From: Escherichia phage vB_EcoM_PHB13
Strand: one strand, 5' to 3'
Length of the DNA stretch: 64,000 nt
Sequence record: MK573636
Part shown: positions 25,401 through 54,768 of the stretch, piece after piece
Layout: each line of letters starts with the position of its first letter
Numbering within the stretch: position 1 is the stretch's first letter
Made by a program: the position numbers and the translations under genes
The notes under the pieces: model-generated
Database searches by the model: none
Told to the model about the DNA's origin: nothing
What the model saw: the letters and a program-made list of their open reading frames with translations, nothing else

Positions 25401-26158
25401 TTGGTTGCGGTTAATCCGTCAAGGTCTGTAGTCTGGATCATGTCGCCATTGTTGGCAAACTTAGGAAGCACTAAGGTAATATTACCCAACGAACTACGAC
25501 GAAATACCTGATCACCATTCTGCATTTGAATAGCATCAATCGCTGGCTGTGCGTACACACCGCGCGGCTCTGTTCCCGTCTGATAAACATGCCAACGATT
25601 CCGAACAAAGATGAAATAGTTCATTGCATACGGGGTAGTGCAATACCATTTTCGGTTATACACATTACCGTTATGGTAAAACTCATGTCCTGAACTCAAG
25701 AACGATAATTCGTTAACACCACACTTGCCACCGATATCTTTTACTGTTATAGTGTCTCCCTCTGCTGGTTTAGTTGGCATAGAGAAAGTCAAGTTTGCAA
25801 ATTGACCATCTGCTGCGATATAATCACCAGACTTTAAAGGAGTATCACCGGAAGTTGCTGCAATATAATCCCAACGTGGGTCAGTGCGCAGTGCTTGCCA
25901 TTTAGTCGGGTCAAAATCACCTGCTGGCTTTGTGATATCTTCTTTTGCATAATACGGACGGTTTTGATAGATTGTAGTTCCGTATTGATCATAACCGCGA
26001 GTTGTGTCATACTGAGTAATACCATTATGGTAATTGAAAAATTCAACGTTGACCGCATCCGTTGATGTGTTTTTATCTGCGTATGCTACATTGACGACCT
26101 TTTCATTACCAGCGTCAAAGCCAAATGTGGCCTTGAAATGTTGAGAAAAATCTGCCAT
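22418..26158 (-). CDS. 34: long tail fibre proximal subunit gp34 (1246 aa)
   Basis: N-terminus MADFSQHFKATFGFDAGNEKVVNVAYADKN matches T4 gp34; internal ...GIARIATQAET... and ...GIAEIATQ... repeats and C-terminus ...IRDFLRIGNV-like also match. Confidence 0.9.
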   Translation of the reverse strand: MADFSQHFKATFGFDAGNEKVVNVAYADKNTSTDAVNVEFFNYHNGITQYDTTRGYDQYGTTIYQNRPYYAKEDITKPAGDFDPTKWQALRTDPRWDYIAATSGDTPLKSGDYIAADGQFANLTFSMPTKPAEGDTITVKDIGGKCGVNELSFLSSGHEFYHNGNVYNRKWYCTTPYAMNYFIFVRNRWHVYQTGTEPRGVYAQPAIDAIQMQNGDQVFRRSSLGNITLVLPKFANNGDMIQTTDLDGLTATNHVTVKVHEHAEEQSIGTSGLKEIIGKRSGHGVFIFDKTENLWRLWDGDQSVRLKPIIDDTRLQPNSYVAVFGDRDVTLTLPTNVEQGDRIQVSMQYMQGNQNCRIITATEDTKILIQKNMVQFPKRSEYPFNGTDTWTGVSELSFNAANDYVPYLEFSYSEVDDGKKYWLVAHAHPIVERVDPTRKDRVGVIALATQTETNKNHEENPSDEVAVTPKMLANKTANETRRGIARIATQAETHQDTGSSFLDDVIVTPKKLNDCVATEARRGVMEIATQHETNEGLDDTRAITPKKLEERRASEDLAGIAEIVQVGGSAAARRGEAGTGIYNINDHAKIVTPQNINEVKATETSRGVGYLATDAEVQGATESTPQDALLITTRTLTKRTATESRTGIAEIATQEETNLGQSDNHIITPKKLHTRRATETLHGLAEIATQPEFDAGLDDARISTPLKIKTFFENAQRLKVDPTQGLNLTGDLWQGIMISGLDATEDTKGVAKVATTQLTDAGQDDTTIITPKKLQGKKATEGKEGIIRVGTQAETVAGTLANVAISPKNFKYVVQTEDTWKATEARRGFLKVATQENCFVGDNLQGSTQELGNYQHDGIAVTPKGLNYALANFLPKMATAQNSLKLGNVEAAKWARRDIDQTIESNYTFNKNVNVKGDLECLKSGSFETLSVTKNSTDDPSNGHLVLGERGVDGHTGITLHGTTASEGMKNSWSIIVGGTGTAQVVDSDAIAFGKINDGGVVEHYAFAMKHNGDATAYRDFIAGRNLYAKQGGLYIVDQSNPAMTRSPDGMLNIGHGGSVNIKAGHQTLTTEIAGQKYQIVHAGNADEVLNRQFVKNAGDTMVGKLTMDNAPIVSVKHEASAATAPAIGNIGFWNMRVTTQNIKETYPEKKNGTLMQWGTDADGLTQLWSPDGTHKHYIRSGTGGQWTAWGEIYTKQNKPTAQEIGAVVAEGGLMNSMTVRDWIKVGNVKIIANNLTRTVDFIWED

Positions 26159-26209
26159 TATTGGGTCTCCTGTTATAATATGAAATTATTTATTATGTGA
26201 GGTGTTGTT

Positions 26210-26774
26210 GTGGCAAAAACAAAATTTTGGGATATCGAGACACAGAAAGCGATAAAAGGTAGATTTTATCATGTTGATGGAATATTATACCATTTAAAGG
26301 ATTCTGTATCTGCTGGATTCCGAAAAGAAGGGTCCAGATACAAAAAAAGGTGATGTGGTAAGGGTACGTCTCCATAAAGAAGGATATTTATACTTTACAT
26401 TTTATAACAATGGTCATAAACTTAATCTGTTTGTACATAGAGTTGTCTGGTTTTTAGAGTATGGTACTCAGGTTGAACTAATAGATCACATAGACCAAGA
26501 CAAAACTAACAATAGACCGTCAAACATGAGAGAAGCAACAGAACAGCAAAATCAGTTTAACGTCTCAAAGAAAAAGGCTTGCCATAGCAAATATAAAGGT
26601 GTATCATTATCAACAAGCAAGAAAAAGCCGTGGAAGGCGTATATTGTTATCAATCGAAAGAATATACATCTAGGATACTTTGAGACAGAAGTTGAGGCGG
26701 CTAAGGCTTATGACCGTGCAGCACATGAAAGAGTTGGCGAGTATGCTTATTTAAATTTTCCAAAAAGAGGATGA
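26210..26774 (+). pseudogene. HNH-AP2 homing endonuclease-like gene interrupted by a frameshift at an A7 tract
   Basis: Fragment 26210-26353 (...FWDIETQKAIKGRFYHVDGILYHL...) stops just after AAAAAAA (26342-26348); downstream ORF 26355-26774 carries the HNH (FVHRVVW...IDHIDQDKTNN) and AP2 (YKGVS...AYIVINRKNIHLGYFETEVEAAKAYDRAA) motifs; removing one A joins them. Confidence 0.6.
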
Positions 26775-26780
26775 TATATT

Positions 26781-26966
26781 ATGGTTAAAGTTGATTTGTC
26801 AGAAGGTGCAAAATGGGTAGTTGACAGAATCCCTGATAAGGATTATAATTATTTCCGTGCCGAATTAAACAATGCAATTCTGCGAGTTATGGAAAAGTAC
26901 GGGTATGACCGTGAAGTATCTAACTCGTTTGGTGAATATGTTGTTGTGAGAGTGGAGAGAACTTAA
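26781..26966 (+). CDS. hypothetical protein (61 aa)
   Basis: ORF with AGAGGA RBS upstream. Confidence 0.5.
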   Translation: MVKVDLSEGAKWVVDRIPDKDYNYFRAELNNAILRVMEKYGYDREVSNSFGEYVVVRVERT

Positions 26967-26968
26967 TT

Positions 26969-27916
26969 ATGACGTATAACCCGTTTACAAAAACTACCGC
27001 TACACTTAATGATTTCTTCGATGATCCAGAAGATAAACTGCCGGAAGGTGTGCATTTGATTGATATGTCGCAGCTTATGATTGCTACTATCTCGCATACC
27101 TTTAAACCGGAAGATCCTATTAGTGAAGGTATGATCCGTCATCTTATTCTTGACACCATGCGTTATAATATGACAAAATTCAAAGAGCAATACCCAATTA
27201 CGGTACTTGCCTTTGATTCAAGCAAAGGTTACTGGCGACGTGATATCGCACCTTACTATAAACGCAACCGTAAGGAAAAACGAGACGCAGATCCGCGTGA
27301 TTGGGAGATGATCTTTGCTGCGATCAATAAGATCACCGAAGAGTTTAAAGAGAACATGCCTTATCACGTTATTAAGGTTGACAAAGTTGAAGCAGATGAT
27401 ATAATCGCTGTGTTAACTAAAAAGTTTTCTGTAGAAGGTCGCCAGGTGCTAATCAACTCCGGTGATGGTGACTACACACAGTTGCACAAATACAAAAACG
27501 TGAAACAGTGGGCACCAGTACAGAAAACATGGAAGAAGTGCAAATATGGTAGCCCATACAAAGACCTTATGGTAAAATGTGTTAAGGGTGACGCAAAAGA
27601 CGGTGTAGCTTCTATCAAGTGCCGTAGTGATTTCATTATCTCACGACTGGAAGGGGAACGAGCTAAACCAATTGCAACCAAATGGTTAGAGCAAATTTTC
27701 GATGCCGAAGATCCAAAGTCTTTGATGACAGAGGAAGAAGCACGACGCTTTGACGAAAACCGCGAACTTATTGATTTTGAATTTATTCCTGATAACATCG
27801 AATATGAAATTTTGTTAGCATGGGAGAAATCTAAACCAGCACCACGCGGTAAAATTTATAACTATTTTGTAACAAATGCGTTAGTTAAAATGTTGCAGAA
27901 AATTGGTGAGTTCTAA
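26969..27916 (+). CDS. rnh: RNase H / flap endonuclease
   Basis: GVHLIDMSQLMIATI... and downstream acidic clusters match T4 RNase H (305 aa); sits next to gene 34 as in T4. Confidence 0.85.
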   Translation: MTYNPFTKTTATLNDFFDDPEDKLPEGVHLIDMSQLMIATISHTFKPEDPISEGMIRHLILDTMRYNMTKFKEQYPITVLAFDSSKGYWRRDIAPYYKRNRKEKRDADPRDWEMIFAAINKITEEFKENMPYHVIKVDKVEADDIIAVLTKKFSVEGRQVLINSGDGDYTQLHKYKNVKQWAPVQKTWKKCKYGSPYKDLMVKCVKGDAKDGVASIKCRSDFIISRLEGERAKPIATKWLEQIFDAEDPKSLMTEEEARRFDENRELIDFEFIPDNIEYEILLAWEKSKPAPRGKIYNYFVTNALVKMLQKIGEF

Positions 27917-27926
27917 GGGTTGACAT

Positions 27927-28523
27927 ATGAAAGAACTTGAATTAAAATACTATGCACACTCACAAATTGGCGTCGAAACAATCTGTGATTTGTGGGTAGC
28001 AATGTATGACGGGTACAATCTAGTAGATCGTGCTAACACTCTAAAACACGAATTTTATTATGATACCGAAGATCATGCACTGCGTCGAAAAGGAATTTAT
28101 GCTAGACTTGACGTTAATAGATCATTGATCATGGTCAAAATAGGTGATAGTGAATCTGGACTCTTCAACCGAGAAGAAATTACTTTTTCAACAACGGATG
28201 ATTTCTATCACTATGTTGATAGTCTAGGCGTAAACTCCGACCTTATCATTCCTTTACTTCAAGTAATGACATACCGCAAGTCATTGACACTTGACCTTGA
28301 GGGTGCTATAGTGGAAATGTGCAAAGACACTTTCTATTATTGCAAAGTCGGCGAAGTAATGGGAGATGCTCACTATGAACTTGAGTTCGAGTTAAAATCA
28401 GGTGATGAAAAAGCACTTGACATTATCCGAGAAATGATGCTAGAATATGTTGGTGACGATTTAAGTCCTAGCGAAATTTCAAAAGCTGAACGTGGTTTTC
28501 AATTAATGACGAAAGAGGGTTAA
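27927..28523 (+). CDS. CYTH-like (triphosphate tunnel metalloenzyme-like) protein
   Basis: N-terminal ELELKY and C-terminal YELEFELK resemble the E-x-E-x-K signatures of CYTH domains; assignment is tentative. Confidence 0.4.
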   Translation: MKELELKYYAHSQIGVETICDLWVAMYDGYNLVDRANTLKHEFYYDTEDHALRRKGIYARLDVNRSLIMVKIGDSESGLFNREEITFSTTDDFYHYVDSLGVNSDLIIPLLQVMTYRKSLTLDLEGAIVEMCKDTFYYCKVGEVMGDAHYELEFELKSGDEKALDIIREMMLEYVGDDLSPSEISKAERGFQLMTKEG

Positions 28524-28528
28524 ATATT

Positions 28529-28804
28529 ATGACTGAACAGAAAAAAGAAAAAGTAGTATTCGATGAAAATGTACACGGAAATACCCTGGCACAACTGATT
28601 AAAGAAGCCAGCGATCAGAAAACCATTCAAGAAGCATACGGCGATAAGATCAAAGAGATCAAACAGCGTGCTAAAGAAGAATTAGGCGTAGACGGTAAAA
28701 TGTGGGGCATTCTGTTTAAACTGTATCACCAGCAACAGCGCGAAACCTTCGAAGCAGAACGCGATGAAGCGGTAGAACTCTATGATCGGGTGTTCAATGC
28801 TTAA
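28529..28804 (+). CDS. dsbA: double-stranded DNA-binding protein DsbA-like
   Basis: 91-aa basic/acidic protein in the T4 dsbA position between rnh and gene 33. Confidence 0.55.
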   Translation: MTEQKKEKVVFDENVHGNTLAQLIKEASDQKTIQEAYGDKIKEIKQRAKEELGVDGKMWGILFKLYHQQQRETFEAERDEAVELYDRVFNA

Positions 28805-29051
28805 TGAACATGCGGTAAAAGCCGCGAATAAAACAGCAAACGGTCTTGCAATCGAAAAACTGGTTGTTGAAGAGGGATTGACCTATCTTGAAGCAACAAC
28901 TCAGTTTGTAGAGGAAAACTCTATCGAATATGGTCACTATCAGAAGTATATTCCGGTGTCCATTATTGACAAGATCACACAAGAATGTATAGTAAATAGA
29001 ACGCTCAGGAAGGGAGTGATCGACGAACCGACCAACACTCTCGATATTTAA
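28782..29051 (+). CDS. 33: late transcription co-activator gp33
   Basis: IEKLVVEEGLTYLEATTQFVEENSI matches T4 gp33 (IEKMVEEFGMSYLEATTAFLEENSI); start may be ATG 28797. Confidence 0.8.
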   Translation: MIGCSMLNEHAVKAANKTANGLAIEKLVVEEGLTYLEATTQFVEENSIEYGHYQKYIPVSIIDKITQECIVNRTLRKGVIDEPTNTLDI

Positions 29052-29060
29052 GGGGTATGT

Positions 29061-29741
29061 ATGATCAGAAACCGTCTTCCTCCAGATCCAGATATGCGAA
29101 TTAATGCTAAATCTGTGTATATGTTATATTGCATGATGAAAGCTCATATGAACGGGCGTTATGATTGCGTAAAATACAATTGGAGGATGCGGTTGTCTGA
29201 TGCCGCATTCAATAAACGCAGAGATAAGTATTATTTCGCAAAATTAGCGGAAAAGTACAATCTAAGAGAACTATACTTCCTATTCCTAAGCAATCTGGTG
29301 GCTAATACCGATGCATGGGTAGGTGAAATCACTGATGTTGACGCATACGGCTTTTATATGGAATACATAGGAAAGATAACCGATGCAGCAACAAGATTTG
29401 ACGATGACATTAAAAGTCTGGTATACTTCTCCGAGAAACGCGGGGTTACTCTTAAAGAGCTAATTACATACAATCCCGCAACCGAAACAAGCGGTATCTT
29501 TAAACTACTGCAAAATCGGATTATATCGTTTGAGTCGTTTATGTTGTTAGATAGCTTTCTAAATATAATCGACGAACACGACAAGGTAGCCAAAGACTTG
29601 ATTTGGCAAACTTATAGTGTTAAAATGAAGGCGTACAAGAAACTACTTGTTATTGACGCCGCAAAAGCAAGAGCATTATTTGTTAAAGTAGTTAAAGAGT
29701 GTAAAGAAATATCTCAATTAAAAACCGAAACAAATAGTTGA
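29061..29741 (+). CDS. 59: helicase loader gp59
   Basis: ...KSVYMLYCMMKAHMNGRYDCVKYNWRMRLSDAAFNKRRDKYYF... matches T4 gp59 closely. Confidence 0.9.
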   Translation: MIRNRLPPDPDMRINAKSVYMLYCMMKAHMNGRYDCVKYNWRMRLSDAAFNKRRDKYYFAKLAEKYNLRELYFLFLSNLVANTDAWVGEITDVDAYGFYMEYIGKITDAATRFDDDIKSLVYFSEKRGVTLKELITYNPATETSGIFKLLQNRIISFESFMLLDSFLNIIDEHDKVAKDLIWQTYSVKMKAYKKLLVIDAAKARALFVKVVKECKEISQLKTETNS

Positions 29742-29765
29742 CAAGTAAATTTAAATCTGTATAAT
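29738..29765 (+). promoter_or_regulatory. sigma70-type promoter upstream of gene 32
   Basis: TTGACA 29738-29743, 16-nt spacer, TATAAT 29760-29765. Confidence 0.5.
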
Positions 29766-29795
29766 AATCTAGTAAATTAATCAAAAGAAGGAATA

Positions 29796-30770
29796 GTGAA
29801 TATGTTTAAACGCCAAGATTCTTCCAAACTGCAAGCTCAACTGGCCGCACTGAAAGGTGGCAACGGTTTCTCCAAAGAAGATCCGAAAGAGTGGAAGATT
29901 AAGACTGATGCAGCAGGTAACGGTGAAGCCCTGATTCGCTTCCTGCCGTCTAAGACAGAAGACGGTCTGCCGATTGTGAAACTGGTAAACCATTCCTTCA
30001 AAGTTAATGGCAAATGGTATTGGGAAAACTGCTCCAGCACCCACGGTGATTTTGATTCTTGCCCTGTGTGCAAATATATTAACGAAAAAGACCTGTACAA
30101 TACCGATAAAACAGAATGGCAACTGATTAAGCGTAAAGCGTCTTACTACGCAAATATTCTGGTACTGAAAGATCCTCAAGCACCAGAAAATGAAGGTAAG
30201 GTATTCAAATTCCGCTTCGGTCAGAAAATTTATGATAAGATCGTTGCAATGGTGAACGTGAATACCGATATGGGCGAAGTTCCGGTCGATGTAACTTGTG
30301 TGTTCTCTGGTGCTAACTTCCTCCTGAAAGCTAAGAAGGTTGATAAACACCAGAACTATGATGATTCTCGTTTCATGCAGCAATCACAGCTTCCGAAAAT
30401 TGAAGACGAAGCATATCAGAAATATCTGATGGAAAACATGGTTGATCTGAGTGAGATTGTAGCGCCTAGCCAGTTTAAACCGTTCGATGAACTGGAAACC
30501 AAATTTAAGAAAACTATGGGCGTTTCTATGGTAGCTGGTGCTGCGGCTTCCAGTGCTGCGGCAGCGATTAACAGCCAGCTTGACGATTTTGACGCACAGA
30601 TGAATGCATTCGATTCTGGTATGACCGCAGCTAGCACTGTAGTTGGTATTAACGCAGCTAGCACGGCGTTAGATTCTTCCGCTGATGACCTGATGGCATC
30701 GCTGGATCTGGGTGGCGGTACTTCCTCCGCTTCTGATCTGGATGATCTCGACGCTCTGTTAGGGATGTAA
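29796..30770 (+). CDS. 32: single-stranded DNA-binding protein gp32
   Basis: MFKRQDSS...[30 protein letters not shown]...[17 protein letters not shown]...acidic C-terminus matches T4 gp32; ATG 29802 is the likely start. Confidence 0.95.
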
Positions 30771-30780
30771 TGAATTTTAA

Positions 30781-30809
30781 AGCCTTCCTTCGGGGAGGCT
30801 TTTTTATTA
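30781..30809 (+). terminator. rho-independent terminator after gene 32
   Basis: Hairpin GCCTTCC-TTCG-GGGAGGC followed by TTTTTTATT. Confidence 0.65.
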
Positions 30810-30833
30810 CCTAAATTTTTATGAAAAAATATA

Positions 30834-30861
30834 TTGACATGCTGGCGCGGTAATGTATAAT
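30834..30861 (+). promoter_or_regulatory. sigma70-type early promoter
   Basis: TTGACA 30834-30839, 16-nt spacer, TATAAT 30856-30861, then leader CACATCGAAACAA and GGAGGA RBS. Confidence 0.55.
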
Positions 30862-30896
30862 ACACACATCGAAACAACGGAGGATAATATTATATT

Positions 30897-31226
30897 ATGT
30901 GGACTGTAGAACAAATCGTAGATGAAAAAGTAAGTATTATCTCGTGCGGCACTATTGAAGAATGCCTTAAAGCCGCTAATCGTGAATGTATTACGGTTTA
31001 TGAAGCCCGTCGCGGGGATGGTACTGTGTTAACCAGCGACTATCGATATGAACCAAAAATGATTACCTTTCGTTTTTGGGAAAATGGTGTTAATGTTGGG
31101 GTATCTCACTTAAAACGTTTTCGTGATTATTCTGACCGTTATTTCATCACACCGGATAACGGTCAAGAATTTAAGACAGCAATCACAGAAGAAAATGTAA
31201 ACGAAAACTATTTCAAACTGATTTGA
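30897..31226 (+). CDS. hypothetical protein (109 aa)
   Basis: ORF after GGAGGA RBS. Confidence 0.5.
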   Translation: MWTVEQIVDEKVSIISCGTIEECLKAANRECITVYEARRGDGTVLTSDYRYEPKMITFRFWENGVNVGVSHLKRFRDYSDRYFITPDNGQEFKTAITEENVNENYFKLI

Positions 31227-31241
31227 TGGGAGATTTATATT

Positions 31242-31811
31242 ATGATTCAATGTGTATTTGCGATTGGTGACACTAAAATGTCAGATGAAAATTGGGCTTT
31301 TGGTTTTAAAGGCGGTTTACCGTGGGGTCGTCCAATCAAAAAGGACATGGAAAACTTTAAAATGCGCACTATGGGAGATGTTGACCTTGCGGCGGTGGTA
31401 ATGGGACGTAATACCTTTGAAAGTCTCCCTAAAGCACTGGAAGGACGTCTTAATGTGGTTATTAGCACCGATGCCAGTAAGCCGACACCAAAAGCTAAAA
31501 ACGGCGACCAGCCTAATGTGTATACTGGAATTGAATTAAAGGATCTGTTAAAAGTCCTGGAGAAAACGCAAGGTTTGGTAAGCGTTATCGGTGGACCTTC
31601 CCTAATTGAAAAAGCAGTTGACTTTGCGGACCGTATTGTGTTAACGTATGTTCAACGTTCAGGGACCAACGATCCATTGGAATATGATGTTGGAATCTCT
31701 AAGGATATGATTCAGGAATTATTTTTTGACTTTGCAACAAAAGAAGAACATAATTACTTCCTTGATGATTACCTGATCAGCGAACAAATTTTAGAACGTA
31801 AGAAGGCGTAA
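31242..31811 (+). CDS. frd: dihydrofolate reductase
   Basis: ...AFGFKGGLPWGRPIKKDMENFKMRT...VVMGRNTFESLP...VIGGPSL... are DHFR motifs; sits upstream of td as in T4. Confidence 0.8.
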   Translation: MIQCVFAIGDTKMSDENWAFGFKGGLPWGRPIKKDMENFKMRTMGDVDLAAVVMGRNTFESLPKALEGRLNVVISTDASKPTPKAKNGDQPNVYTGIELKDLLKVLEKTQGLVSVIGGPSLIEKAVDFADRIVLTYVQRSGTNDPLEYDVGISKDMIQELFFDFATKEEHNYFLDDYLISEQILERKKA

Positions 31812-47958: not shown

Positions 47959-47988
47959 TTGACAGGGGAGGTTAAACTCCCCTATAAT
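47959..47988 (+). promoter_or_regulatory. early promoter with stem-loop (PeSL-like)
   Basis: TTGACA 47959-47964, stem GGGGAG-GTTAAA-CTCCCC, TATAAT 47983-47988. Confidence 0.6.
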
Positions 47989-48022
47989 ACACACATACCG
48001 AAACGAACTAGGAGAATCAATT

Positions 48023-48202
48023 ATGAACTTCAACGAAATCATCGCTAAAATCCGCTACAACGAAGAAACCATTGAACTGATGCAAAACAATATCACCAAT
48101 GGATATATGATTGCAGCGTCACAAGAAATCATTGATTTGACGGTAGCAGAAAATGCTCAGTTGAAACATCAACTTTCAACGGCTGGCGTGATTGTTATGT
48201 AA
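48023..48202 (+). CDS. hypothetical protein (59 aa)
   Basis: MNFNEIIAKIRYNEETIELMQ... after AGGAGAATCAATT-ATG. Confidence 0.45.
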   Translation: MNFNEIIAKIRYNEETIELMQNNITNGYMIAASQEIIDLTVAENAQLKHQLSTAGVIVM

Positions 48203-48219
48203 TAAAGAGAGGTGACTAA

Positions 48220-48522
48220 ATGGCAAAAGTTCAGGTAGGTGAGGTCTTCAAAATGGAAGACCATACCGTGGAAGAGATGAAAGGCGCAGTATTGAAAGTA
48301 ATTAATTCAATGTGGCGTAGTGTGCTTTACATCAACTTTATCGACGGTGATGTGTGGTGGGCTAGCGATAGCGATAAATGGGATATCAAGTTCTACAAAG
48401 GTCATACTCACTGGTTAGGATCAGAGGATGTTGTAGAAGTTCTGGCGGTTGATGTTATGCCAGGAGAGATCGAGAATCTTAGCGGAACAGCAAAAGAAGC
48501 ATTGACACGCCATTTTGCGTAA
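48220..48522 (+). CDS. H-x-H-W family paralogue 1 (100 aa)
   Basis: ...YINFIDGDV...KGHTHWLGSEDVVEVLAVDV... Confidence 0.55.
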   Translation: MAKVQVGEVFKMEDHTVEEMKGAVLKVINSMWRSVLYINFIDGDVWWASDSDKWDIKFYKGHTHWLGSEDVVEVLAVDVMPGEIENLSGTAKEALTRHFA

Positions 48523-48578
48523 TGTAGTATAACAATAATCGGGAGGGTAATACTCTCCCACAAATTGAGGATAATATT

Positions 48579-48770
48579 ATGTGTGGTCTTAAAATGGTTG
48601 CTGAATATAAGCGAACTGGTAATGTTATGATGTATCGACGCAATGCCAACGAAGAATGGAAACCTTCAAACCGCATTAAATCCATCCAGACGTTTATGAA
48701 TAACATCAAAGAAAACCTTTTCGTTAAGCGTGCTGGTGCTGGACATTGGGAAGTTTACGAAGCTGTATAA
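48579..48770 (+). CDS. hypothetical protein (63 aa)
   Basis: ORF after GAGGATAATATT-ATG; preceded by a stem GGGAG...CTCCC lacking a -35. Confidence 0.5.
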   Translation: MCGLKMVAEYKRTGNVMMYRRNANEEWKPSNRIKSIQTFMNNIKENLFVKRAGAGHWEVYEAV

Positions 48771-48786
48771 TTTTGAGGAAAATATT

Positions 48787-49095
48787 ATGGAACAAACTAA
48801 GCTATTTGTCGCGGAACCTTTTGTAAGAGACAATAAAAATCTGGCTAAAACAATCATTTTGTATTCGGATTGGATCTTTTATATCGATGGTAATTTAGAC
48901 GTATATTGTCGCACAGCTCCAACTGATTCGTTTTATATCGAAGAAAACGACACTCATAATCATTGGTATGATGGAAACGACAAAACCGAACTAGCTGTTG
49001 TCCTAGCGTCAGACGTAGAACCTGAAAACGCGGACAAAGTAGCAGACAAATTTATGAAGTACGCATATAAAGATAAAAATGAAGATGAAGAATAA
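48787..49095 (+). CDS. H-x-H-W family paralogue 2 (102 aa)
   Basis: ATG 48787; ...WIFYIDGNLDVY...DTHNHWYDGNDKTELAVVLASDV... Confidence 0.55.
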   Translation: MEQTKLFVAEPFVRDNKNLAKTIILYSDWIFYIDGNLDVYCRTAPTDSFYIEENDTHNHWYDGNDKTELAVVLASDVEPENADKVADKFMKYAYKDKNEDEE

Positions 49096-49102
49096 AAAGT
49101 TG

Positions 49103-49131
49103 TTGACAGGGGATCACCGATCCCCTATAAT
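49103..49131 (+). promoter_or_regulatory. early promoter with stem-loop (PeSL-like, GGGGATC family)
   Basis: TTGACA 49103-49108, stem GGGGATC-ACC-GATCCCC, TATAAT 49126-49131. Confidence 0.6.
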
Positions 49132-49165
49132 ACACACATACCAACGAGATATAGGAGAATCAAAA

Positions 49166-49333
49166 ATGTTCCAGACTAAAGCAGAATGCGAAGCATACAT
49201 TGTAGCAAACCACGGTGAAGACTACCTGAAATTCGATATCGTAGTAGCACAGAAGATCACCGGAATGGTTGCAAAATATCTGGGTGTTAAAGAAGGTTAC
49301 TATCCTAGCAACGCACCAGAAATTAACAAATAA
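49166..49333 (+). CDS. small protein (55 aa), copy 1 of a duplicated gene
   Basis: MFQTKAECEAYIVANHGEDYLKFDIVVAQKITGMVAKYLGVKEGYYPSNAPEINK; near-identical to 52424-52591. Confidence 0.6.
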   Translation: MFQTKAECEAYIVANHGEDYLKFDIVVAQKITGMVAKYLGVKEGYYPSNAPEINK

Positions 49334-49336
49334 TAG

Positions 49337-49371
49337 TTGACAATGATTAAAGGGAGTAGTAAGATACTCCC
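49337..49371 (+). promoter_or_regulatory. early promoter with stem-loop (PeSL-like, GGGAGTA family)
   Basis: TTGACA 49337-49342, TAAGAT 49360-49365 within GGGAGTAGTAAGATACTCCC. Confidence 0.6.
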
Positions 49372-49397
49372 ATCAAGACAACAAACGGAGAATCAAA

Positions 49398-49577
49398 ATG
49401 AAAGCTATCGAAGTTCAGAAGTACATGGAAATCATCGTTGAAAGTAAAGCACATTTAGTGTTGACTACTCACGTAGGATATGATAAAAATGTGCATATGC
49501 TGGTAGACAACATCGGCTGGATGAAGTTTAATCCTAACGAGAACGTACAAGCTCAAGAAATGACCATCCCTTTCTAA
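49398..49577 (+). CDS. hypothetical protein (59 aa)
   Basis: MKAIEVQKYMEIIVESKAHLVLTTHVGYDK...; not in the ORF track. Confidence 0.45.
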   Translation: MKAIEVQKYMEIIVESKAHLVLTTHVGYDKNVHMLVDNIGWMKFNPNENVQAQEMTIPF

Positions 49578-49589
49578 GAGGAATATATT

Positions 49590-49868
49590 ATGATGCGAAT
49601 TACTGCAACGCTGGATAAGACACACAAAGAAAGATTTTTCGGTATGATCTTAAAAACGCCGATTTTCGATAATTACCTTTATGTTGACTATAACGGTCAC
49701 ATTAGCTATAAATGTAAAAATGATATTCGTGATTCCTTTGGTGATAAATCACAAGCCGATATTCACGATCATTGGTGGAACCATGACGAACCTTTACGGG
49801 TTATCGCAGTTGATGTAAAAACAACAAAAGAAGCTGATAAGGTAGTGAATGATTATGAGCAAATTTAA
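49590..49868 (+). CDS. H-x-H-W family paralogue 3 (92 aa)
   Basis: ...NYLYVDYNGHISY...DIHDHWWNHDEPLRVIAVDV... Confidence 0.55.
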   Translation: MMRITATLDKTHKERFFGMILKTPIFDNYLYVDYNGHISYKCKNDIRDSFGDKSQADIHDHWWNHDEPLRVIAVDVKTTKEADKVVNDYEQI

Positions 49869-50064
49869 AGATTATAAAGCATATCAACAGATCTTGCGAG
49901 TATACGAACCAGAGTTCGCCGAAAAGATGATGGAAGATGCATCAAAATGCCCGTCCTTTTCTGGAAACAAAAACCATTATTCTACTGGTATTGTATCATG
50001 GAAAGAAACCGCATATACTCAACAATGGATAGATGTGTTTTCAAAAACTCTTGATTGGTGTTAA
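49855..50064 (+). CDS. small protein, MSKFKDY family copy 1
   Basis: MSKFKDYKAYQQI...MMEDASKC...; tandem paralogue of the next ORF. Confidence 0.5.
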   Translation: MSKFKDYKAYQQILRVYEPEFAEKMMEDASKCPSFSGNKNHYSTGIVSWKETAYTQQWIDVFSKTLDWC

Positions 50065-50066
50065 TT

Positions 50067-50282
50067 ATGAGTAAATTTAAAGATTATCGAGCATATAAAG
50101 CGATCTGCGATATATTCGATGAAAAGACCGCTCATGCAATGATGGAAGATGCAGAACAATATGAATCATTCGTCAATTCCAAAGATTGCACAGTAAACGA
50201 GGTTGTGTGCTGGAAAGATACAAAGTATGAAGAAAAATGGATTACTGTGTATTACGGAGAACTAGAATATGAAATTAACTAA
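50067..50282 (+). CDS. small protein, MSKFKDY family copy 2
   Basis: MSKFKDYRAYKAI...MMEDAEQY... Confidence 0.5.
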   Translation: MSKFKDYRAYKAICDIFDEKTAHAMMEDAEQYESFVNSKDCTVNEVVCWKDTKYEEKWITVYYGELEYEIN

Positions 50283-50589
50283 AAAGATTTTCCCAGAATT
50301 GCGTAACTGTCTGTTACTGGTTACTGAATATAAACCTTATACGATCTACTTGTATGTTGATGAAAATCTGAAAATCCGTTACTATGATTATACGTCTCCA
50401 GTAATGAGATCATTTGCTCACGCGATAGCAAACAATTGTATGAATCATAATCATTGGGTAAGTGATAATGATCATGATGCGTCAGAAGTTGTAGTGATCG
50501 CATGGAATCTATCACCAGCGGAAGCAGATCAAGCACGCATTAAGCATTATGCGAAAAACAATTGGTTTGACCTTATAAGTGAGGACTAA
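50269..50589 (+). CDS. H-x-H-W family paralogue 4 (106 aa)
   Basis: ...YTIYLYVDENLKIRYYDY...NHNHWVSDNDHDASEVVVIAWNL... Confidence 0.55.
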   Translation: MKLTKKIFPELRNCLLLVTEYKPYTIYLYVDENLKIRYYDYTSPVMRSFAHAIANNCMNHNHWVSDNDHDASEVVVIAWNLSPAEADQARIKHYAKNNWFDLISED

Positions 50590-50593
50590 TATT

Positions 50594-50872
50594 ATGTTCA
50601 AAGTAGGTGATAAGTTTATTCTTAGTCGTGATATTCTCCCTAATCTGAAAGGTTGTATCATCAATCCTAGTAAAAATTCATGGTTTTATCTGTTTATCGA
50701 CGACAAACTGAATGTACGCGCCGAATATAAAGAAGGTCTTCGTACTGGTCTAGGTTTCTTTCACGATCATGATCATAGCCATTGGCTAAACGGTGGATTC
50801 GAAGCAACGGTGCTAGCGGTTGATGTGACTTACACGAACATCATAGAAAAATATCAAAAAATTATTTTATAA
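50594..50872 (+). CDS. H-x-H-W family paralogue 5 (92 aa)
   Basis: ATG 50594 after GAGGAC; ...WFYLFIDDKLNV...HDHDHSHWLNGGFEATVLAVDV... Confidence 0.55.
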   Translation: MFKVGDKFILSRDILPNLKGCIINPSKNSWFYLFIDDKLNVRAEYKEGLRTGLGFFHDHDHSHWLNGGFEATVLAVDVTYTNIIEKYQKIIL

Positions 50873-50878
50873 AAAGTG

Positions 50879-50913
50879 TTGACATAAGATCGGGTGTATA
50901 GCATAATACACCC
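50879..50913 (+). promoter_or_regulatory. early promoter with stem-loop (PeSL-like, GGGTGTAT family)
   Basis: TTGACA 50879-50884, 17-nt spacer, CATAAT 50902-50907 in loop of GGGTGTAT...ATACACCC. Confidence 0.6.
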
Positions 50914-50953
50914 ATCGAAACGAGATACACTTTCTAACTAGGAGAATCAAATT

Positions 50954-51241
50954 ATGGCATACATCACTATCACTCTGAAAGTTAACAAATTTGCTCACGC
51001 TGCACACGAAACCGATAATGCAATCCGTAACAACAAGTTTGCACGTCTGGTACGCGATGCAGTAGCTAAAGAGTTCAACTTCAAATTTGCAGATGGTAAA
51101 GTTATCACTAAATGGACTCATGACGGCGAAACTAAAGTAGAACTTGCTGACAACTTCGCAAATCAGGAATATGCACACCGCCGCATCAATGAAATCATCA
51201 GCGATGAACTCTACTACGGAGTACAGGAAGGTTTGTTTTAA
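50954..51241 (+). CDS. hypothetical protein (95 aa)
   Basis: ORF after the cassette; weak similarity to the 47638 ORF. Confidence 0.55.
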   Translation: MAYITITLKVNKFAHAAHETDNAIRNNKFARLVRDAVAKEFNFKFADGKVITKWTHDGETKVELADNFANQEYAHRRINEIISDELYYGVQEGLF

Positions 51242-51245
51242 TATA

Positions 51246-51267
51246 GGGGGCGTTAAGCCCCTTTTAA
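51246..51267 (+). terminator. rho-independent terminator
   Basis: Hairpin GGGGC-GTTAA-GCCCC followed by TTTT. Confidence 0.55.
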
Positions 51268-51290
51268 TCTATCTGAATGAGGATATCACT

Positions 51291-51599
51291 ATGAAAAATC
51301 TTGTAGTTGAATTTACCCGCGAGAATTTACCACAATTTCGCAATTCTCTGCTTAAACTAGAGAACAGTAATTATGATGTATATTTTTACATCACCGAAGA
51401 TCTAGAGATCCTTTACGCTGATTACCCAGGTCCGATCCGTACCTTCGAAACCGCATCAAAATATAAAAATGTGCACGGTCATGAGCACTGGTTACGAGAA
51501 AACCCAGGTCGCAAGAAAGCACGCGTTAAAGTGTTGGCGATTGACATAACACCAGCATACGCCGACCGGATTGCACAGAATGATTATTTGTCTAAATGA
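51291..51599 (+). CDS. H-x-H-W family paralogue 6 (102 aa)
   Basis: ATG 51291; ...YDVYFYITEDLEILYADY...HGHEHWLRENPGRKKARVKVLAIDI... Confidence 0.55.
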   Translation: MKNLVVEFTRENLPQFRNSLLKLENSNYDVYFYITEDLEILYADYPGPIRTFETASKYKNVHGHEHWLRENPGRKKARVKVLAIDITPAYADRIAQNDYLSK

Positions 51600-51606
51600 T
51601 TTCATT

Positions 51607-51633
51607 AGCCGACCTTAGTGTCGGCTTTTTTAT
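51607..51633 (+). terminator. rho-independent terminator
   Basis: Hairpin AGCCGAC...TCGGCT followed by TTTTTTATT. Confidence 0.6.
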
Positions 51634-51657
51634 TGCATAAAATTTAAAAAAAAGGCA

Positions 51658-51686
51658 TTGACACCAGATCACGCCTATAGCATAAT
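51658..51686 (+). promoter_or_regulatory. early promoter (degenerate GGGTGTAT-family cassette)
   Basis: TTGACA 51658-51663, 17-nt spacer, CATAAT 51681-51686; right arm ATACACCC kept, left arm degenerate. Confidence 0.5.
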
Positions 51687-51726
51687 ACACCCATCGAAAC
51701 GAGATACCACTTAGGAGAATCAAACA

Positions 51727-51996
51727 ATGGCGCTGACTAAAACCACTACCAACTTTGCAAAACGTCACGGCTTCGACCTTGAAATCAATAGCTTTAACGA
51801 TTACACCCTTCTGTGTGTATATGAAATCGAAAATGATTGCGAGTGGATGTTCAGCTATCGCGTAAACGAAGACGGATCTTTCACTTGGAACGGAAATATC
51901 TATCTTGCACAGGAAGTAAAAGAAGAACTTCCGGCGACTATCAAAGATGAGAAACATTTACGTCAAGTTTTAAAATTTATTTCTGAAAATATCTAA
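51727..51996 (+). CDS. hypothetical protein (89 aa)
   Basis: ORF after TTAGGAGAATCAAACA-ATG. Confidence 0.55.
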   Translation: MALTKTTTNFAKRHGFDLEINSFNDYTLLCVYEIENDCEWMFSYRVNEDGSFTWNGNIYLAQEVKEELPATIKDEKHLRQVLKFISENI

Positions 51997-52003
51997 AAAG
52001 TTG

Positions 52004-52032
52004 TTGACACCAAAGTAAGAACATAGCATAAT
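52004..52032 (+). promoter_or_regulatory. early promoter (degenerate GGGTGTAT-family cassette)
   Basis: TTGACA 52004-52009, 17-nt spacer, CATAAT 52027-52032, then ATACACCC. Confidence 0.5.
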
Positions 52033-52065
52033 ACACCCATACCGAAACGAACTGGAGAATCAAAA

Positions 52066-52347
52066 ATGAAATTCATCAAAGCAACCGAAATCCTGAAAAA
52101 CAAAGAAGCATACATCGGAAACATCGTTGGTATGAACATTCGCGGCGCTGGTAGCCAGTGGACCAAACTGGTTGATGTTAAAGCTAAAGGCGATAAAATT
52201 GAGTTCACTGTAAAAATGCTTACTCATAACGCACATATGGGTATCAAGACAAAAACGATGGCAGCAGATAAAAGCATCAACTATCAGGATCTGGGTGATT
52301 GGCTGAACTGGTGCAAAATGCACAACATCGAAACTAATCACGAATAA
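52066..52347 (+). CDS. hypothetical protein (93 aa)
   Basis: ORF after GGAGAATCAAAA-ATG. Confidence 0.55.
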   Translation: MKFIKATEILKNKEAYIGNIVGMNIRGAGSQWTKLVDVKAKGDKIEFTVKMLTHNAHMGIKTKTMAADKSINYQDLGDWLNWCKMHNIETNHE

Positions 52348-52361
52348 TTTTAAAAAAGTTG

Positions 52362-52390
52362 TTGACGGGGATCGGGAGATCCCCTATAAT
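52362..52390 (+). promoter_or_regulatory. early promoter with stem-loop (PeSL-like, GGGGATC family)
   Basis: TTGACG 52362-52367, stem GGGGATC-GGGA-GATCCCC, TATAAT 52385-52390. Confidence 0.6.
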
Positions 52391-52423
52391 ACACACATAC
52401 CGAAACGAAATAGGAGAATCAAA

Positions 52424-52591
52424 ATGTTCGAGACTAAAGCAGCATGTGAAGCATATATCATTGAAACCCACGGCGAAGATTATCTGAAATTTGACATTGT
52501 AGTAGCACAGAAGATTGTAGGGATGGTTGCGAAATACCTCGGAGTTAAAGAAGGTTACTATCCAAGCAACGCACCGGAAATTAACAAATAA
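52424..52591 (+). CDS. small protein (55 aa), copy 2 of a duplicated gene
   Basis: MFETKAACEAYIIETHGEDYLKFDIVVAQKIVGMVAKYLGVKEGYYPSNAPEINK; about 90% amino-acid identity to 49166-49333. Confidence 0.6.
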   Translation: MFETKAACEAYIIETHGEDYLKFDIVVAQKIVGMVAKYLGVKEGYYPSNAPEINK

Positions 52592-52606
52592 TTTTTATAA
52601 AAAGTG

Positions 52607-52635
52607 TTGACAGGGGAGACACCCTCCCCTATAAT
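52607..52635 (+). promoter_or_regulatory. early promoter with stem-loop (PeSL-like)
   Basis: TTGACA 52607-52612, stem GGGGAG-ACACC-CTCCCC, TATAAT 52630-52635. Confidence 0.6.
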
Positions 52636-52675
52636 ACAACCATCAAGACGAGATACCACTTAGGAGAATCAAACA

Positions 52676-52927
52676 ATGGCTAACATCGAAACCGCAAAGA
52701 AAATCGCTAAAGACCTGAACGTTAAAGGCTTCCGTAAACTGAAATTACAGCGTGTACGCTACACCATCGGCAAACAGTGCTCTTTCATGAGCGAAGAAGT
52801 TGCTAACAGCCTCATTGATAACCTGATTGCGGCTGGCTGGGAAGTTGCGGATCTGAAAACTTGCCGCGAACTGGCTAACAAAGGTCTTTTAGATTCTGTT
52901 ACTATAAAACCAATGGGGGCAGCGTGA
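52676..52927 (+). CDS. hypothetical protein (83 aa), first gene of a coupled operon
   Basis: MANIETAKKIAKDL...; first 16 coding nt identical to the 54805 ORF; stop overlaps the next start (GTGA). Confidence 0.55.
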   Translation: MANIETAKKIAKDLNVKGFRKLKLQRVRYTIGKQCSFMSEEVANSLIDNLIAAGWEVADLKTCRELANKGLLDSVTIKPMGAA

Positions 52928-53169
52928 AAAGAAAATTAATTAAACGAAATAAGGAATTTTTGAATAACTGCATTAAGGTTGCTAATGGTTGGCCTTTGTT
53001 CCTCTTCCTTTATGATTGGTATTCTAAACAATCGGTAGAGGAAACACGACACTATAAGAAGATCAGAAAAGAATCATATACAAAACAAGGCCGCATTAAC
53101 GGACTTTACTTAATGTGGCACGGCAAAGAACCTTCTAAAATCTGTGTTGGATTAAAGGGGCGTATATGA
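52924..53169 (+). CDS. hypothetical basic protein (81 aa)
   Basis: GTG start overlapping the previous stop; its stop overlaps the next start (ATGA). Confidence 0.45.
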   Translation: MKRKLIKRNKEFLNNCIKVANGWPLFLFLYDWYSKQSVEETRHYKKIRKESYTKQGRINGLYLMWHGKEPSKICVGLKGRI

Positions 53170-53882
53170 AACAAAAATTAATATTCTGCAACTTTGACGG
53201 ATCGGGGATAATGGGGCTAGAATGGGCTAAAGCAGGTCATAAGGTGATCTGCTTTAATGCAGATGATGCCGACCACGGCACATACAAAAAGTATAATACC
53301 CGATTTGAACATCCAAACATTACATATGTAAACACATGGATTGATTTGGATTGGCTGGAAAGAGCAATGGACCTTGAATGGGGAAAACCAGATATTATCT
53401 TTGCATTCCCACCGTGCACCAATTTAGCTGTTAGTGGCGCTGCACACTTTGAACGAAAGAAACGAGAACAAGGACCATTAATTCAAGTTCATGATGTAAG
53501 GGCAGCTAAAATAACCGCTTATTTGGGCGAATGGTTAGAAGTTCCCTACATGATAGAGAATCCTGTAAGCGTTATCTCTAGCATGTGGCGTAAGCCTGAT
53601 TACATGTTCCACCCGTGGGAATATGGCGGTTATTTGCCGGAATATGATATACATCCTACGTTTCCTGAGTATATTGCCTCCCGTGATATGTACCCGAAAA
53701 AGACTTGCTTATGGACGGGACAAGGTTTTATAATGCCAGAAAAGAAACCTATACCGATTAATAAAGGGTACAGTAAACAGCATTCTAAGCTAGGCGGGAA
53801 AGGAACCAGAACAAAGACTATCAGGTCACTTACCCCGCGAGGATTCGCAAAGGCAGTATTTGAAGCCAATAAGGATCTATGA
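53166..53882 (+). CDS. cytosine-C5 methyltransferase-like catalytic core protein (238 aa)
   Basis: Motif I-like FCNFDGSGIMG, motif IV-like IIFAFPPCTNLAVSGA (Pro-Cys) and motif VI-like YMIENPVSV in DNA C5-MTase order; too short for a target-recognition domain. Confidence 0.5.
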   Translation: MKQKLIFCNFDGSGIMGLEWAKAGHKVICFNADDADHGTYKKYNTRFEHPNITYVNTWIDLDWLERAMDLEWGKPDIIFAFPPCTNLAVSGAAHFERKKREQGPLIQVHDVRAAKITAYLGEWLEVPYMIENPVSVISSMWRKPDYMFHPWEYGGYLPEYDIHPTFPEYIASRDMYPKKTCLWTGQGFIMPEKKPIPINKGYSKQHSKLGGKGTRTKTIRSLTPRGFAKAVFEANKDL

Positions 53883-54211
53883 TGGGATTGTTTAAGTATT
53901 CGCTAACGTCAAATTACGATAAACAAGGTCATTGCATCAGTTGCCCTGATTGTCGTAGCCATAACATCGAAAGCAAGATCACCGATCATATTGATGGACT
54001 TTGGTCGCCAGCAAGCGAGATAGAATACTATTGCGCTGATTGTGGAATTGTAGTAGCATATTGGGCATACGGATCATATGATCCTTACTTCCAGATGGGA
54101 GAGCGTTCAATCCCTGCTCTTATCTGGAGAATTAAGAACAATATCCGCCATTCATGGGATGAGTTCTTAAAAGATATTGATTTACGTGATGATCCATTCA
54201 GGAGACTATAA
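53879..54211 (+). CDS. zinc-ribbon protein (110 aa)
   Basis: CISCPDC ... CADCG: four-Cys zinc ribbon; start overlaps the previous stop (ATGA). Confidence 0.5.
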   Translation: MMGLFKYSLTSNYDKQGHCISCPDCRSHNIESKITDHIDGLWSPASEIEYYCADCGIVVAYWAYGSYDPYFQMGERSIPALIWRIKNNIRHSWDEFLKDIDLRDDPFRRL

Positions 54212-54212
54212 C

Positions 54213-54731
54213 ATGAACCGTTTGACGCCTAAACGCCGTTACTATACCAATACTAAAAACTTTGTCATCTCTGTTTATGAGGCGTGGTTAGAAGATGGCT
54301 ATATCAACATGAACCCAGATTACCAGCGTCCTTTGGTATGGGACACCGAAAACAAACGTATGTTTATCGAAAACCTGATTAATGATTTTCCGGTTGGTGC
54401 TATCGCAATGGCTAAGATTGATGATGGCTCTCGCTATGAGATCGAAATCGTGGACGGTAAACAGCGTTTAAACGCAATATTCTCCTTTATGAAAGATGAG
54501 TTTAGCATTGCTGGTAATGATGATTCTATGTTGTATTACAGTGATTTTACGCCAGCAGAAAAGCGACGTTTTCGCAATCTCGGACTACCCGCGATCATGA
54601 TGGAAGAGAGCACACGAGAAGATCGATTAGAATATTTCTACAAAACAAACTTTTTCGGTGTGCCTCAATCAGAAGATCATCGCCAGCATGTGATTGCATT
54701 ATTGCAAGATGAGCAATTAAAAAATAACTAA
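54213..54731 (+). CDS. DUF262 / ParB-like nuclease-domain protein (172 aa)
   Basis: NPDYQRPLVW...FIENLINDFPVGAI...EIVDGKQRLNAI matches the DUF262 hallmarks (YQR...W, DGQQR-like); ATG 54213 after GGAGA. Confidence 0.55.
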   Translation: MNRLTPKRRYYTNTKNFVISVYEAWLEDGYINMNPDYQRPLVWDTENKRMFIENLINDFPVGAIAMAKIDDGSRYEIEIVDGKQRLNAIFSFMKDEFSIAGNDDSMLYYSDFTPAEKRRFRNLGLPAIMMEESTREDRLEYFYKTNFFGVPQSEDHRQHVIALLQDEQLKNN

Positions 54732-54738
54732 AAAGTTG

Positions 54739-54768
54739 TTGACAGGGGGATCGGTGATCCCCTATAAT
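54739..54768 (+). promoter_or_regulatory. early promoter with stem-loop (PeSL-like, GGGGATC family)
   Basis: TTGACA 54739-54744, stem GGGGGATC-GGT-GATCCCC, TATAAT 54763-54768. Confidence 0.6.

Follow-up and report, generated by a model that had tools for sequence, protein, structure and literature searches.

A stand-alone CYTH tunnel protein, most likely a triphosphate hydrolase, encoded between rnh and dsbA in Krischvirus-like coliphages

The 64,000-nucleotide (nt) stretch of Escherichia phage vB_EcoM_PHB13 analysed here (sequence record MK573636; hereafter the window) comes from a Krischvirus (RB49-like, T4-type) coliphage and carries, at 27927..28523 of the + strand, an ATG-initiated gene for a 198-residue protein assigned to the CYTH/triphosphate tunnel metalloenzyme (TTM) superfamily. 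The gene is flanked on the left by the T4-type RNase H gene rnh (26969-27916; PF09293, E 2.6e-37, and PF02739) and on the right by dsbA (28529-28804; PF11126, E 5e-22), beyond which lie the genes for gp33 (28782-29051), gp59 (29061-29741) and gp32 (29796-30770); the presence of a 198-residue open reading frame (ORF) between rnh and dsbA, claimed in an earlier sequence-only reading of this DNA, is thus confirmed by the ORF call and by its Pfam-identified neighbours. In T4 itself rnh and dsbA are 8 nt apart with no gene in between, so that, with T4 as the reference, the CYTH ORF is an insertion. A Shine-Dalgarno-like AAGGG (27915..27919, +), located 7 nt 5' of the CYTH ATG, overlaps the rnh stop codon (27914-27916), an arrangement that would allow translational coupling of rnh to the CYTH gene. 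The region from 26900 to 29100 is 96-98.5% identical at the nt level to RB49, JSE, vB_EcoM_011D4 and other phages (97-98.5% for RB49 and JSE), and the CYTH gene is the orthologue of the RB49 ORF listed as RB49ORF244c. Its retention in all 58 related phage records and a ratio of nonsynonymous to synonymous divergence (dN/dS) of 0.2-0.3 show that it is a real protein-coding gene.

The CYTH affinity of the product, which the sequence-only reading had proposed from short acidic motifs, is recovered by Pfam: PF01928 (CYTH) is the sole family reported at E<=1, and its score of 26.6 bits (E 6.2e-6) lies above the curated gathering score of 23.2. The match is borderline, with the divergent alleles P0040 and P0045 falling below the cut-off and P0043 just above it. 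Among PHROGs, the protein belongs to phrog_14893 (E 1e-131), annotated as 'unknown function', which is also the only PHROG family matched by P0057 and P0046, the two cellular CYTH proteins that were compared with this collection. NCBIfam and PADLOC scans of the protein gave no match, nor does it match CHAD in Pfam, and the 198-residue chain stops after the tunnel domain. When a profile of 22 phage homologues is used to search PDB sequences, E. coli YgiF is the only solved relative found (E 0.004), and hhalign aligns the same profile with that of 50 canonical YgiF-like CYTH proteins over 188 columns (probability 99.8%, E 1.5e-28). An AlphaFold2 model built on the phage alignment is confident (predicted local distance difference test score, pLDDT, 91.3; predicted TM-score, pTM, 0.84) and consists of nine strands and a C-terminal helix, in the order beta1, helix, beta2, short helix, beta3-beta4-beta5, helix, beta6-beta7-beta8, helix, beta9, C-terminal helix. 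This strand order is that of the TTM barrel, and from the predicted secondary structure we infer closure of the tunnel and the orientation of its side chains. Foldseek matches 49 PDB entries to the model at E<=1e-3, nearly all of them TTM proteins, in line with the tunnel fold anticipated by the sequence-only reading; the top match is YgiF (5a60; E 2e-12, query TM-score, TMq, 0.77, 23% identity), followed by B. halodurans, B. anthracis, Sulfolobus and plant TTMs, thiamine triphosphatases and class IV cyclases, with a weaker tail of Mediator Med18/20-type barrels, VTC and capping-enzyme triphosphatases. Judged by its sequence and predicted fold, the gene product is most likely a stand-alone CYTH/TTM protein of the YgiF-like branch, devoid of a CHAD domain and acting as a triphosphate hydrolase, not as a cyclase.

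The domain assignment itself is not new and is already public: Nolan et al. (2006) listed RB49ORF244c with a Pfam CYTH match (E 0.0026; PMC1524935), and most cluster representatives bear a precomputed PF01928 match. What is added here is a residue-level case, made from alignments and a model, for a probably intact, hydrolase-like enzyme with a YxRxD/K40 variant; a conserved rnh-CYTH-dsbA synteny combined with fast divergence; and the allelic-cassette structure of the gene.

The roles of active-site residues in YgiF and AtTTM3 were set by structures and mutagenesis: in YgiF, Glu-160 binds metal 1; Glu-4, Glu-6 and Glu-162 bind metal 2, activating the attacking water; Arg-56 is important for catalysis; and Lys-69 aids substrate binding (Martinez et al., PMC4641920). 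The phage protein carries on beta1 the ExExK hallmark as E3-L-E5-L-K7 (27933..27947, +), whose E3 and E5 align with Glu-4 and Glu-6 of metal site 2; the motif is invariant in the 22 homologues and is also found in the distant members P0044 and P0045. On beta8, E151-L-E153-F-E155-L-K157 (28377..28397, +) aligns E153 with Glu-160 (site 1) and E155 with Glu-162 (site 2), and all four metal-binding glutamates (E3, E5, E153 and E155) are kept. These two strings are the ones whose resemblance to E-x-E-x-K signatures of CYTH/TTM proteins had been pointed out from the sequence alone, and the resemblance proves well founded; ELELKY does open the protein (residues 3-8), but YELEFELK, described as its end, occupies residues 150-157 on beta8, about 40 residues before the C-terminus. 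The C-terminal helix (186-195 in the model) includes S185-K186-x-x-R189-G190..L193 (28479..28505, +), the SK..RG basic motif of YgiF-like TTMs, which is invariant in the phage family and matches canonical S186, K187, R190 and G191.

Fifteen residues are invariant in the canonical profile, and the phage family has 14 of these, again without variation: E4, E6, K8, Y40, D42, R56, K69, R81, E83, R122, D139, E156, E158 and K187 have as their phage counterparts, in the beta3 register preferred below, E3, E5, K7, Y44, D46, R60, K71, R82, E84, R117, D134, E153, E155 and K186, respectively. The remaining one, the second Arg of RxR on beta3, is D62 in the phage protein. D/N62, like K40, occurs in the phage clade only, and K40 might compensate for D62 through a cross-strand salt bridge. 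In the phage family, the invariant positions fall on every second residue, as tunnel-facing strand residues should, and variation is found in helices and loops; an active enzyme is expected to show this alternation.

Several observations weigh against an active hydrolase. D62 in place of the second Arg takes a positive charge out of the tunnel; in AtTTM3, exchange of the second Arg (Arg-54) for Ala did not strongly impair catalysis (PMC4641920). P0044 seems to lack D134. In phage vB_EcoM_G2494, a one-base frameshift splits the CYTH gene (L010, 301-896) into ORFs of 66 and 130 residues, the latter of which is also a separate protein cluster (P0035) and a BFVD entry; the gene may thus be dispensable, or the frameshift may be a sequencing error. 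A literature search for biochemical, genetic or functional studies of any phage CYTH member found none. Finally, phmmer and hmmsearch comparisons with YgiF put Y58, not R60, opposite the catalytic Arg-56 (register A); if this register were true, the catalytic Arg would be gone, as in cyclases. The loss of one tunnel Arg, the fast evolution of the gene and the viable isolate with a frameshifted copy could all be accommodated by a catalytically dead tunnel protein, serving as a triphosphate or polyphosphate binder (sponge) or in a structural or regulatory role; we consider this highly improbable, because alleles with an overall identity of only 45-58% all have the same four metal glutamates, the ExExK Lys and the other basic residues, as would be expected under selection for catalysis.

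The register of beta3 decides which residue occupies the position of the catalytic Arg. The phage strand reads G56-I-Y58-A-R60-L-D62, and its segment Y58-A-R60-L-D62 (28098..28112, +), located by hhalign and by the secondary structure of two AlphaFold2 models, is a variant of the canonical [A/S/G]-x-R-x-R. The spacing of the canonical proteins is Tyr(DxY)-16-R1 in 134 of 137 sequences and R1-13-Lys in 118 of 137; the phage Tyr-to-Lys distance is two residues shorter, neither the canonical strand nor the canonical spacing being found, and as a consequence of this shortfall sequence alone permits two registers. Register B, in which R60 is the first Arg, is chosen by hhalign and, for most of the distant homologues, by hmmalign. 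In the model of the canonical homologue P0057 (pLDDT 97.5), a helix at 47-50 is followed by a strand at 54-60, an N61-G62 turn and a strand at 63-69, and Lys-69 therefore pairs with Gly-54, two residues before the first Arg; in the phage model, a short helix (51-54) lies at the same offset from the YxD motif as in P0057 and precedes strands 57-62 and 67-76, joined by a four-residue loop, a layout that pairs K71 with Y58 and hence yields register B. In this register, which the model makes quite probable, R60 would be the catalytic Arg, D62 would replace the second Arg and Y58 would stand at the position of Trp-53 of thiamine triphosphatase (ThTPase). Loss of the catalytic Arg to Y58 was provisionally rejected on the basis of the profile-profile alignment and the AlphaFold2 strand and helix boundaries, the spacing count by itself being ambiguous. 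In either register, the canonical two-Arg strand is cut to a single Arg (R60).

The same positions bear on whether the protein could instead be a class IV-like nucleotidyl cyclase, making cyclic AMP or another cyclic nucleoside monophosphate from a nucleoside triphosphate (NTP) and thereby manipulating CRP-dependent physiology or signalling of the host. Such an activity is named in two GenBank records, labelled 'adenylate cyclase' (two others read 'inorganic triphosphatase'); class IV adenylyl cyclases (CyaB/YpAC-IV; 2fjt and 3n10, E about 1e-6) share the superfamily fold and, like the phage protein, have only one beta3 Arg; and in register A the first Arg is replaced by Y, V or I, reminiscent of the neutral V/C/L substitution that marks these enzymes. 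True class IV adenylyl cyclases are recognised by three features: the extension HFxxxxExExK, replacement of the first Arg by a small neutral residue, and ExA where others have ExE on beta8 (Vogt et al., PMC8233210). In the phage protein only M-K precede the ExExK motif, which starts at residue 3 and leaves no room for HF; beta8 has E153-F-E155, an ExE that is invariant in the family, whereas ExA is strict in class IV cyclases; and the first Arg is kept in the preferred register, since both hhalign and the AlphaFold2 strand geometry put R60 at its position. In addition, the structural matches to class IV cyclases (TMq 0.47-0.48) are far weaker than that to YgiF, and CYTH proteins are known to have been mislabelled 'adenylate cyclase' in many cases. 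We consider a cyclase very unlikely; because HF is absent, ExE is kept and the first Arg is kept in the preferred register, the 'adenylate cyclase' label is probably wrong and 'inorganic triphosphatase' the better guess. Of the two activities that the sequence-only reading had offered, the active-site set speaks for triphosphatase, and the missing HF/ExA signature against a cyclase-like enzyme.

Comparison with characterized tunnel enzymes underlines both the affinity to YgiF and the distinctness of the phage protein. YgiF (5a60/5a61), an inorganic triphosphatase of CYTH-CHAD architecture, is its best PDB match by sequence as well as by structure, and the two proteins share ExExK, the site-1 and site-2 glutamates, Lys-69 (phage K71), the RxE strand and the C-terminal SK..RG helix. 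The phage protein is nevertheless shorter (198 versus 433 residues, the CHAD domain being absent), reads RxD for RxR with a Tyr two residues upstream, has an added K40 and forms a shorter beta3-beta4 hairpin; its gene was not captured recently from the host. Stand-alone bacterial and archaeal TTMs (SaTTM, 7ns9; B. halodurans, 2gfg; NeuTTM/CthTTM type), which are triphosphatases with a two-metal mechanism, are likewise single-domain proteins of about 150-200 residues with a tunnel fold and ExE, but they are farther from the phage protein than YgiF is (TMq 0.6-0.65, 15-17% identity) and keep both Args of RxR and a small residue at the Y58 position. The mammalian 25-kDa ThTPase (5a64, 3bhd; TMq 0.55-0.6, 15-17% identity) is a hydrolase with ExE and, like the phage protein, has an aromatic residue two positions before the first beta3 Arg; its W/YxRxR motif is, however, absent from the phage protein, which reads YxRxD with Asp for the second Arg, and the aromatic is not kept in the wider phage clade. 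To the other viral tunnel enzymes, namely CYTH proteins of uncultured Caudovirales, CYTH NTPases of jumbo phages and capping triphosphatases of giant viruses and poxviruses, no close relationship is detectable (BFVD matches at 8-16% identity).

In Krischvirus-like phages, the gene belongs to the accessory, non-core set and evolves fast. By tblastn (E<=1e-3), the protein is found in 58 phage records, all Krischvirus-like, and nowhere else among 50,697 phage genomes; when 1.84 billion representatives were searched exhaustively with a profile, only four clusters came out below E 1e-15, followed by about 200 weak matches to cellular stand-alone CYTH (~200 residues) and CYTH-CHAD (~500 residues) proteins. 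Synteny extends to more distant T4-like phages: on their contigs, the divergent phage-clade representatives P0043, P0044 and P0045 are all encoded directly upstream of dsbA-gp33, P0043 also with rnh upstream; their CYTH proteins are 45%, 35% and 31% identical to that of the window, respectively, compared with 69-92% for DsbA, gp33 and gp59 of the same contigs. A search of viral contigs for related loci, started from the family alignment, yielded two close Krischvirus loci only, back-translated patterns being too generic. CYTH triphosphatases have been described as scattered in jumbo phages (Iyer et al. 2021), and BFVD holds a few other phage CYTH proteins. The sequence-only reading was thus right in calling a phage CYTH enzyme unusual insofar as such proteins are rare among phages, less so insofar as this one is conserved across Krischvirus, had its CYTH match listed in 2006 and has a few known counterparts in other phages. 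The closest cellular relative, P0046, lies on an archaeal-looking contig (Sec61-beta, RIO1; L007, 4797-6606), directly downstream of a PRK-family kinase gene, a neighbourhood that recalls the PRK-CYTH fusion of plant TTM1/2.

Within the gene, divergence is concentrated in an allelic cassette comprising its first ~470 nt (27940..28397, +), delimited by sliding nt identity and synonymous divergence (dS). Compared with phage Skers, nt identity is 45-63% in most 60-nt windows across 27981-28397 and 98-100% again in the last ~125 nt of the gene, whereas the flanks are 97-100% identical through most of rnh, apart from a short dip near its 3' end, and through dsbA, gp33 and gp59; ECD7-type genomes show the same cassette pattern, at 79% identity. 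The cassette has a dS of 0.48, as opposed to flanking values of 0.08-0.13, and a dN/dS of 0.2-0.3. With synonymous sites diverged too and a dN/dS this low, positive selection is not supported as the cause of the divergence hot spot, which in these sequence comparisons has the signature of old alleles shuffled by recombination under purifying selection. Base composition and GC content of the CYTH gene are normal, and there is therefore no sign of recent foreign acquisition. A second mosaic segment of the block is formed by the gp32 gene (29743-30800), which is 70-89% identical at the nt level to ECD7-type genomes, as against 96-100% in the upstream gp59 gene.

If the protein is, as we prefer, a hydrolase working as YgiF and AtTTM3 do, a triphosphate-bearing substrate would sit in the beta-barrel tunnel, held by K7, R60, K71, R82, R117, K186 and R189 together with a Mg2+ or Mn2+ ion on E153 (site 1), with R60 contacting the oxygen that bridges the beta and gamma phosphates; a second metal on E3, E5 and E155 (site 2) would activate a water molecule for attack on the terminal phosphate, giving Pi and diphosphate. 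Catalytic activity, and hydrolysis in preference to cyclisation, are here predictions from sequence and model. The clade-specific Y58 (V or I in distant members), D62 and K40 suggest that substrate preference has moved away from plain inorganic triphosphate (PPPi), and the enzyme possibly favours triphosphates that carry an organic group, nucleotides for instance. The Tyr, the Asp and the added Lys-40 argue in particular against assuming the strict PPPi specificity of YgiF. That the residue matching ThTPase Trp-53 is aromatic is a hint that the substrate contains an organic moiety, against which stand the V or I of P0044 and P0045.

A more specific version of this idea is a hydrolase specialised for an organic triphosphate important in infection, that is, a host-takeover or anti-defence enzyme in which Y58 would stack on the organic moiety like Trp-53 of ThTPase; its substrate might be a host signal or immune messenger derived from a nucleotide, pppGpp or another alarmone, or thiamine or adenosine-thiamine triphosphate. 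In the preferred register Y58 takes the W/Y position of the ThTPase W/YxRxR motif, where most TTMs have A, S or G, and K40 and D/N62 are limited to the phage clade; CYTH proteins are 31-58% identical where dsbA, gp33 and gp59 are 69-100% identical; divergent alleles have been swapped between near-identical genomes, a pattern frequent in host-interaction genes; and expression is probably early. Since position 58 is V or I, hence non-aromatic, in P0044 and P0045, since dN/dS is below 1 and the raised dS speaks for old recombined alleles with no demonstrable positive selection, and since neither PADLOC and NCBIfam scans nor the literature provided a link to a defence system, we regard such a specialised enzyme as rather unlikely. 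Somewhat more doubtful still is a counter-defence or host-takeover hydrolase that would destroy a triphosphate stress or immune signal of E. coli (a 5'-triphosphorylated linear oligonucleotide messenger, pppGpp, or thiamine or adenosine-thiamine triphosphate), with a Y58/K40/D62 pocket for specificity and alleles that reflect an arms race. Should the substrate turn out to be a signalling nucleotide, the protein would represent a new enzyme class in phage counter-defence; should it be PPPi, polyphosphate or an NTP, the gene would be an ordinary auxiliary metabolic gene. A catalytic set that appears intact next to an altered substrate strand makes the protein a cheap test case for which triphosphate compound matters in infection, and, as a small, soluble, apparently dispensable and presumably early tunnel enzyme of a tractable coliphage, it could help to clarify the role of bacterial TTMs, including E. 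coli YgiF.

Because the tunnel fold is common to the RNA triphosphatases Cet1, mimivirus and vaccinia (Foldseek ranks 43-50) and the neighbouring rnh, dsbA, gp33, gp59 and gp32 all handle nucleic acids, a further candidate is an RNA 5'-triphosphatase that, by analogy with TTM-type RNA triphosphatases of eukaryotic viruses, would convert 5'-ppp into 5'-pp ends on host or phage transcripts and so speed their RppH/RNase E-dependent decay. To this possibility we give very little credence, as the protein matches CYTH only and not the Cet1-type Pfam family (PF02940), the structural matches in question are weak (TMq 0.40-0.50, rmsd 7-12 Å), and the T4-type gene neighbourhood is a weak functional guide to a gene that is an insertion relative to T4. 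Moreover, no bacterial YgiF-type TTM is known to act on RNA ends. Clearance of unmodified dNTPs for DNA hypermodification, a role proposed for jumbo-phage CYTH proteins, was likewise judged unlikely: the near-identical Krischvirus phages TB34 and SAP differ in cytosine modification, and their CYTH copies match the query equally in identity and score.

Around the CYTH gene, dsbA and gene 33 overlap by 23 nt (28782-28804), the same length as in T4 (149509-149531 of NC_000866). Directly 5' of rnh, with a 4-nt overlap, lies a conserved 61-residue ORF (26781-26966, +) of phrog_3594, a family with no assigned function, which Skers has as well; between gene 34 and rnh the window also contains a 139-residue ORF resembling an HNH + AP2 homing endonuclease (26355-26774, +), which is absent from this position in Skers, where an HNH endonuclease is instead found between gp59 and gp32 (L001, 5802-6398). 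An Rfam scan of 25500-31500 gave no match.

The nearest upstream candidate for an early promoter of the CYTH gene lies inside rnh (27378..27405, +) and is a perfect sigma-70 consensus (TTGACA-16-TATAAT) with a TG extension; a second perfect consensus in the same direction precedes rnh (26821..26849, +). No late promoter TATAAATA is present near the CYTH gene, which, to go by these sequence elements, is probably transcribed early, together with rnh, from consensus sigma-70 promoters. Matches to 11 of the 12 consensus positions occur on the + strand at 27920-27948, overlapping the CYTH start codon, and within the ORF at 28284-28312 and 28417-28446; these near-consensus elements could drive dsbA and gp33 independently of CYTH. 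Over the entire window there are 11 perfect TTGACA-N16-18-TATAAT promoters (3858, 4841, 6799, 26821, 27378, 29738, 30834, 47959, 49103, 52607 and 54739), all on the + strand, compared with 0.07 expected by chance. The four at 47959-54768 share within their spacer a GGGG(A)...(T)CCCC inverted repeat (TTGACAGGGGAG...CTCCCCTATAAT) and are similar to the 'promoter-early stem-loop' cassettes known from phages of the RB49/Phi1 type.

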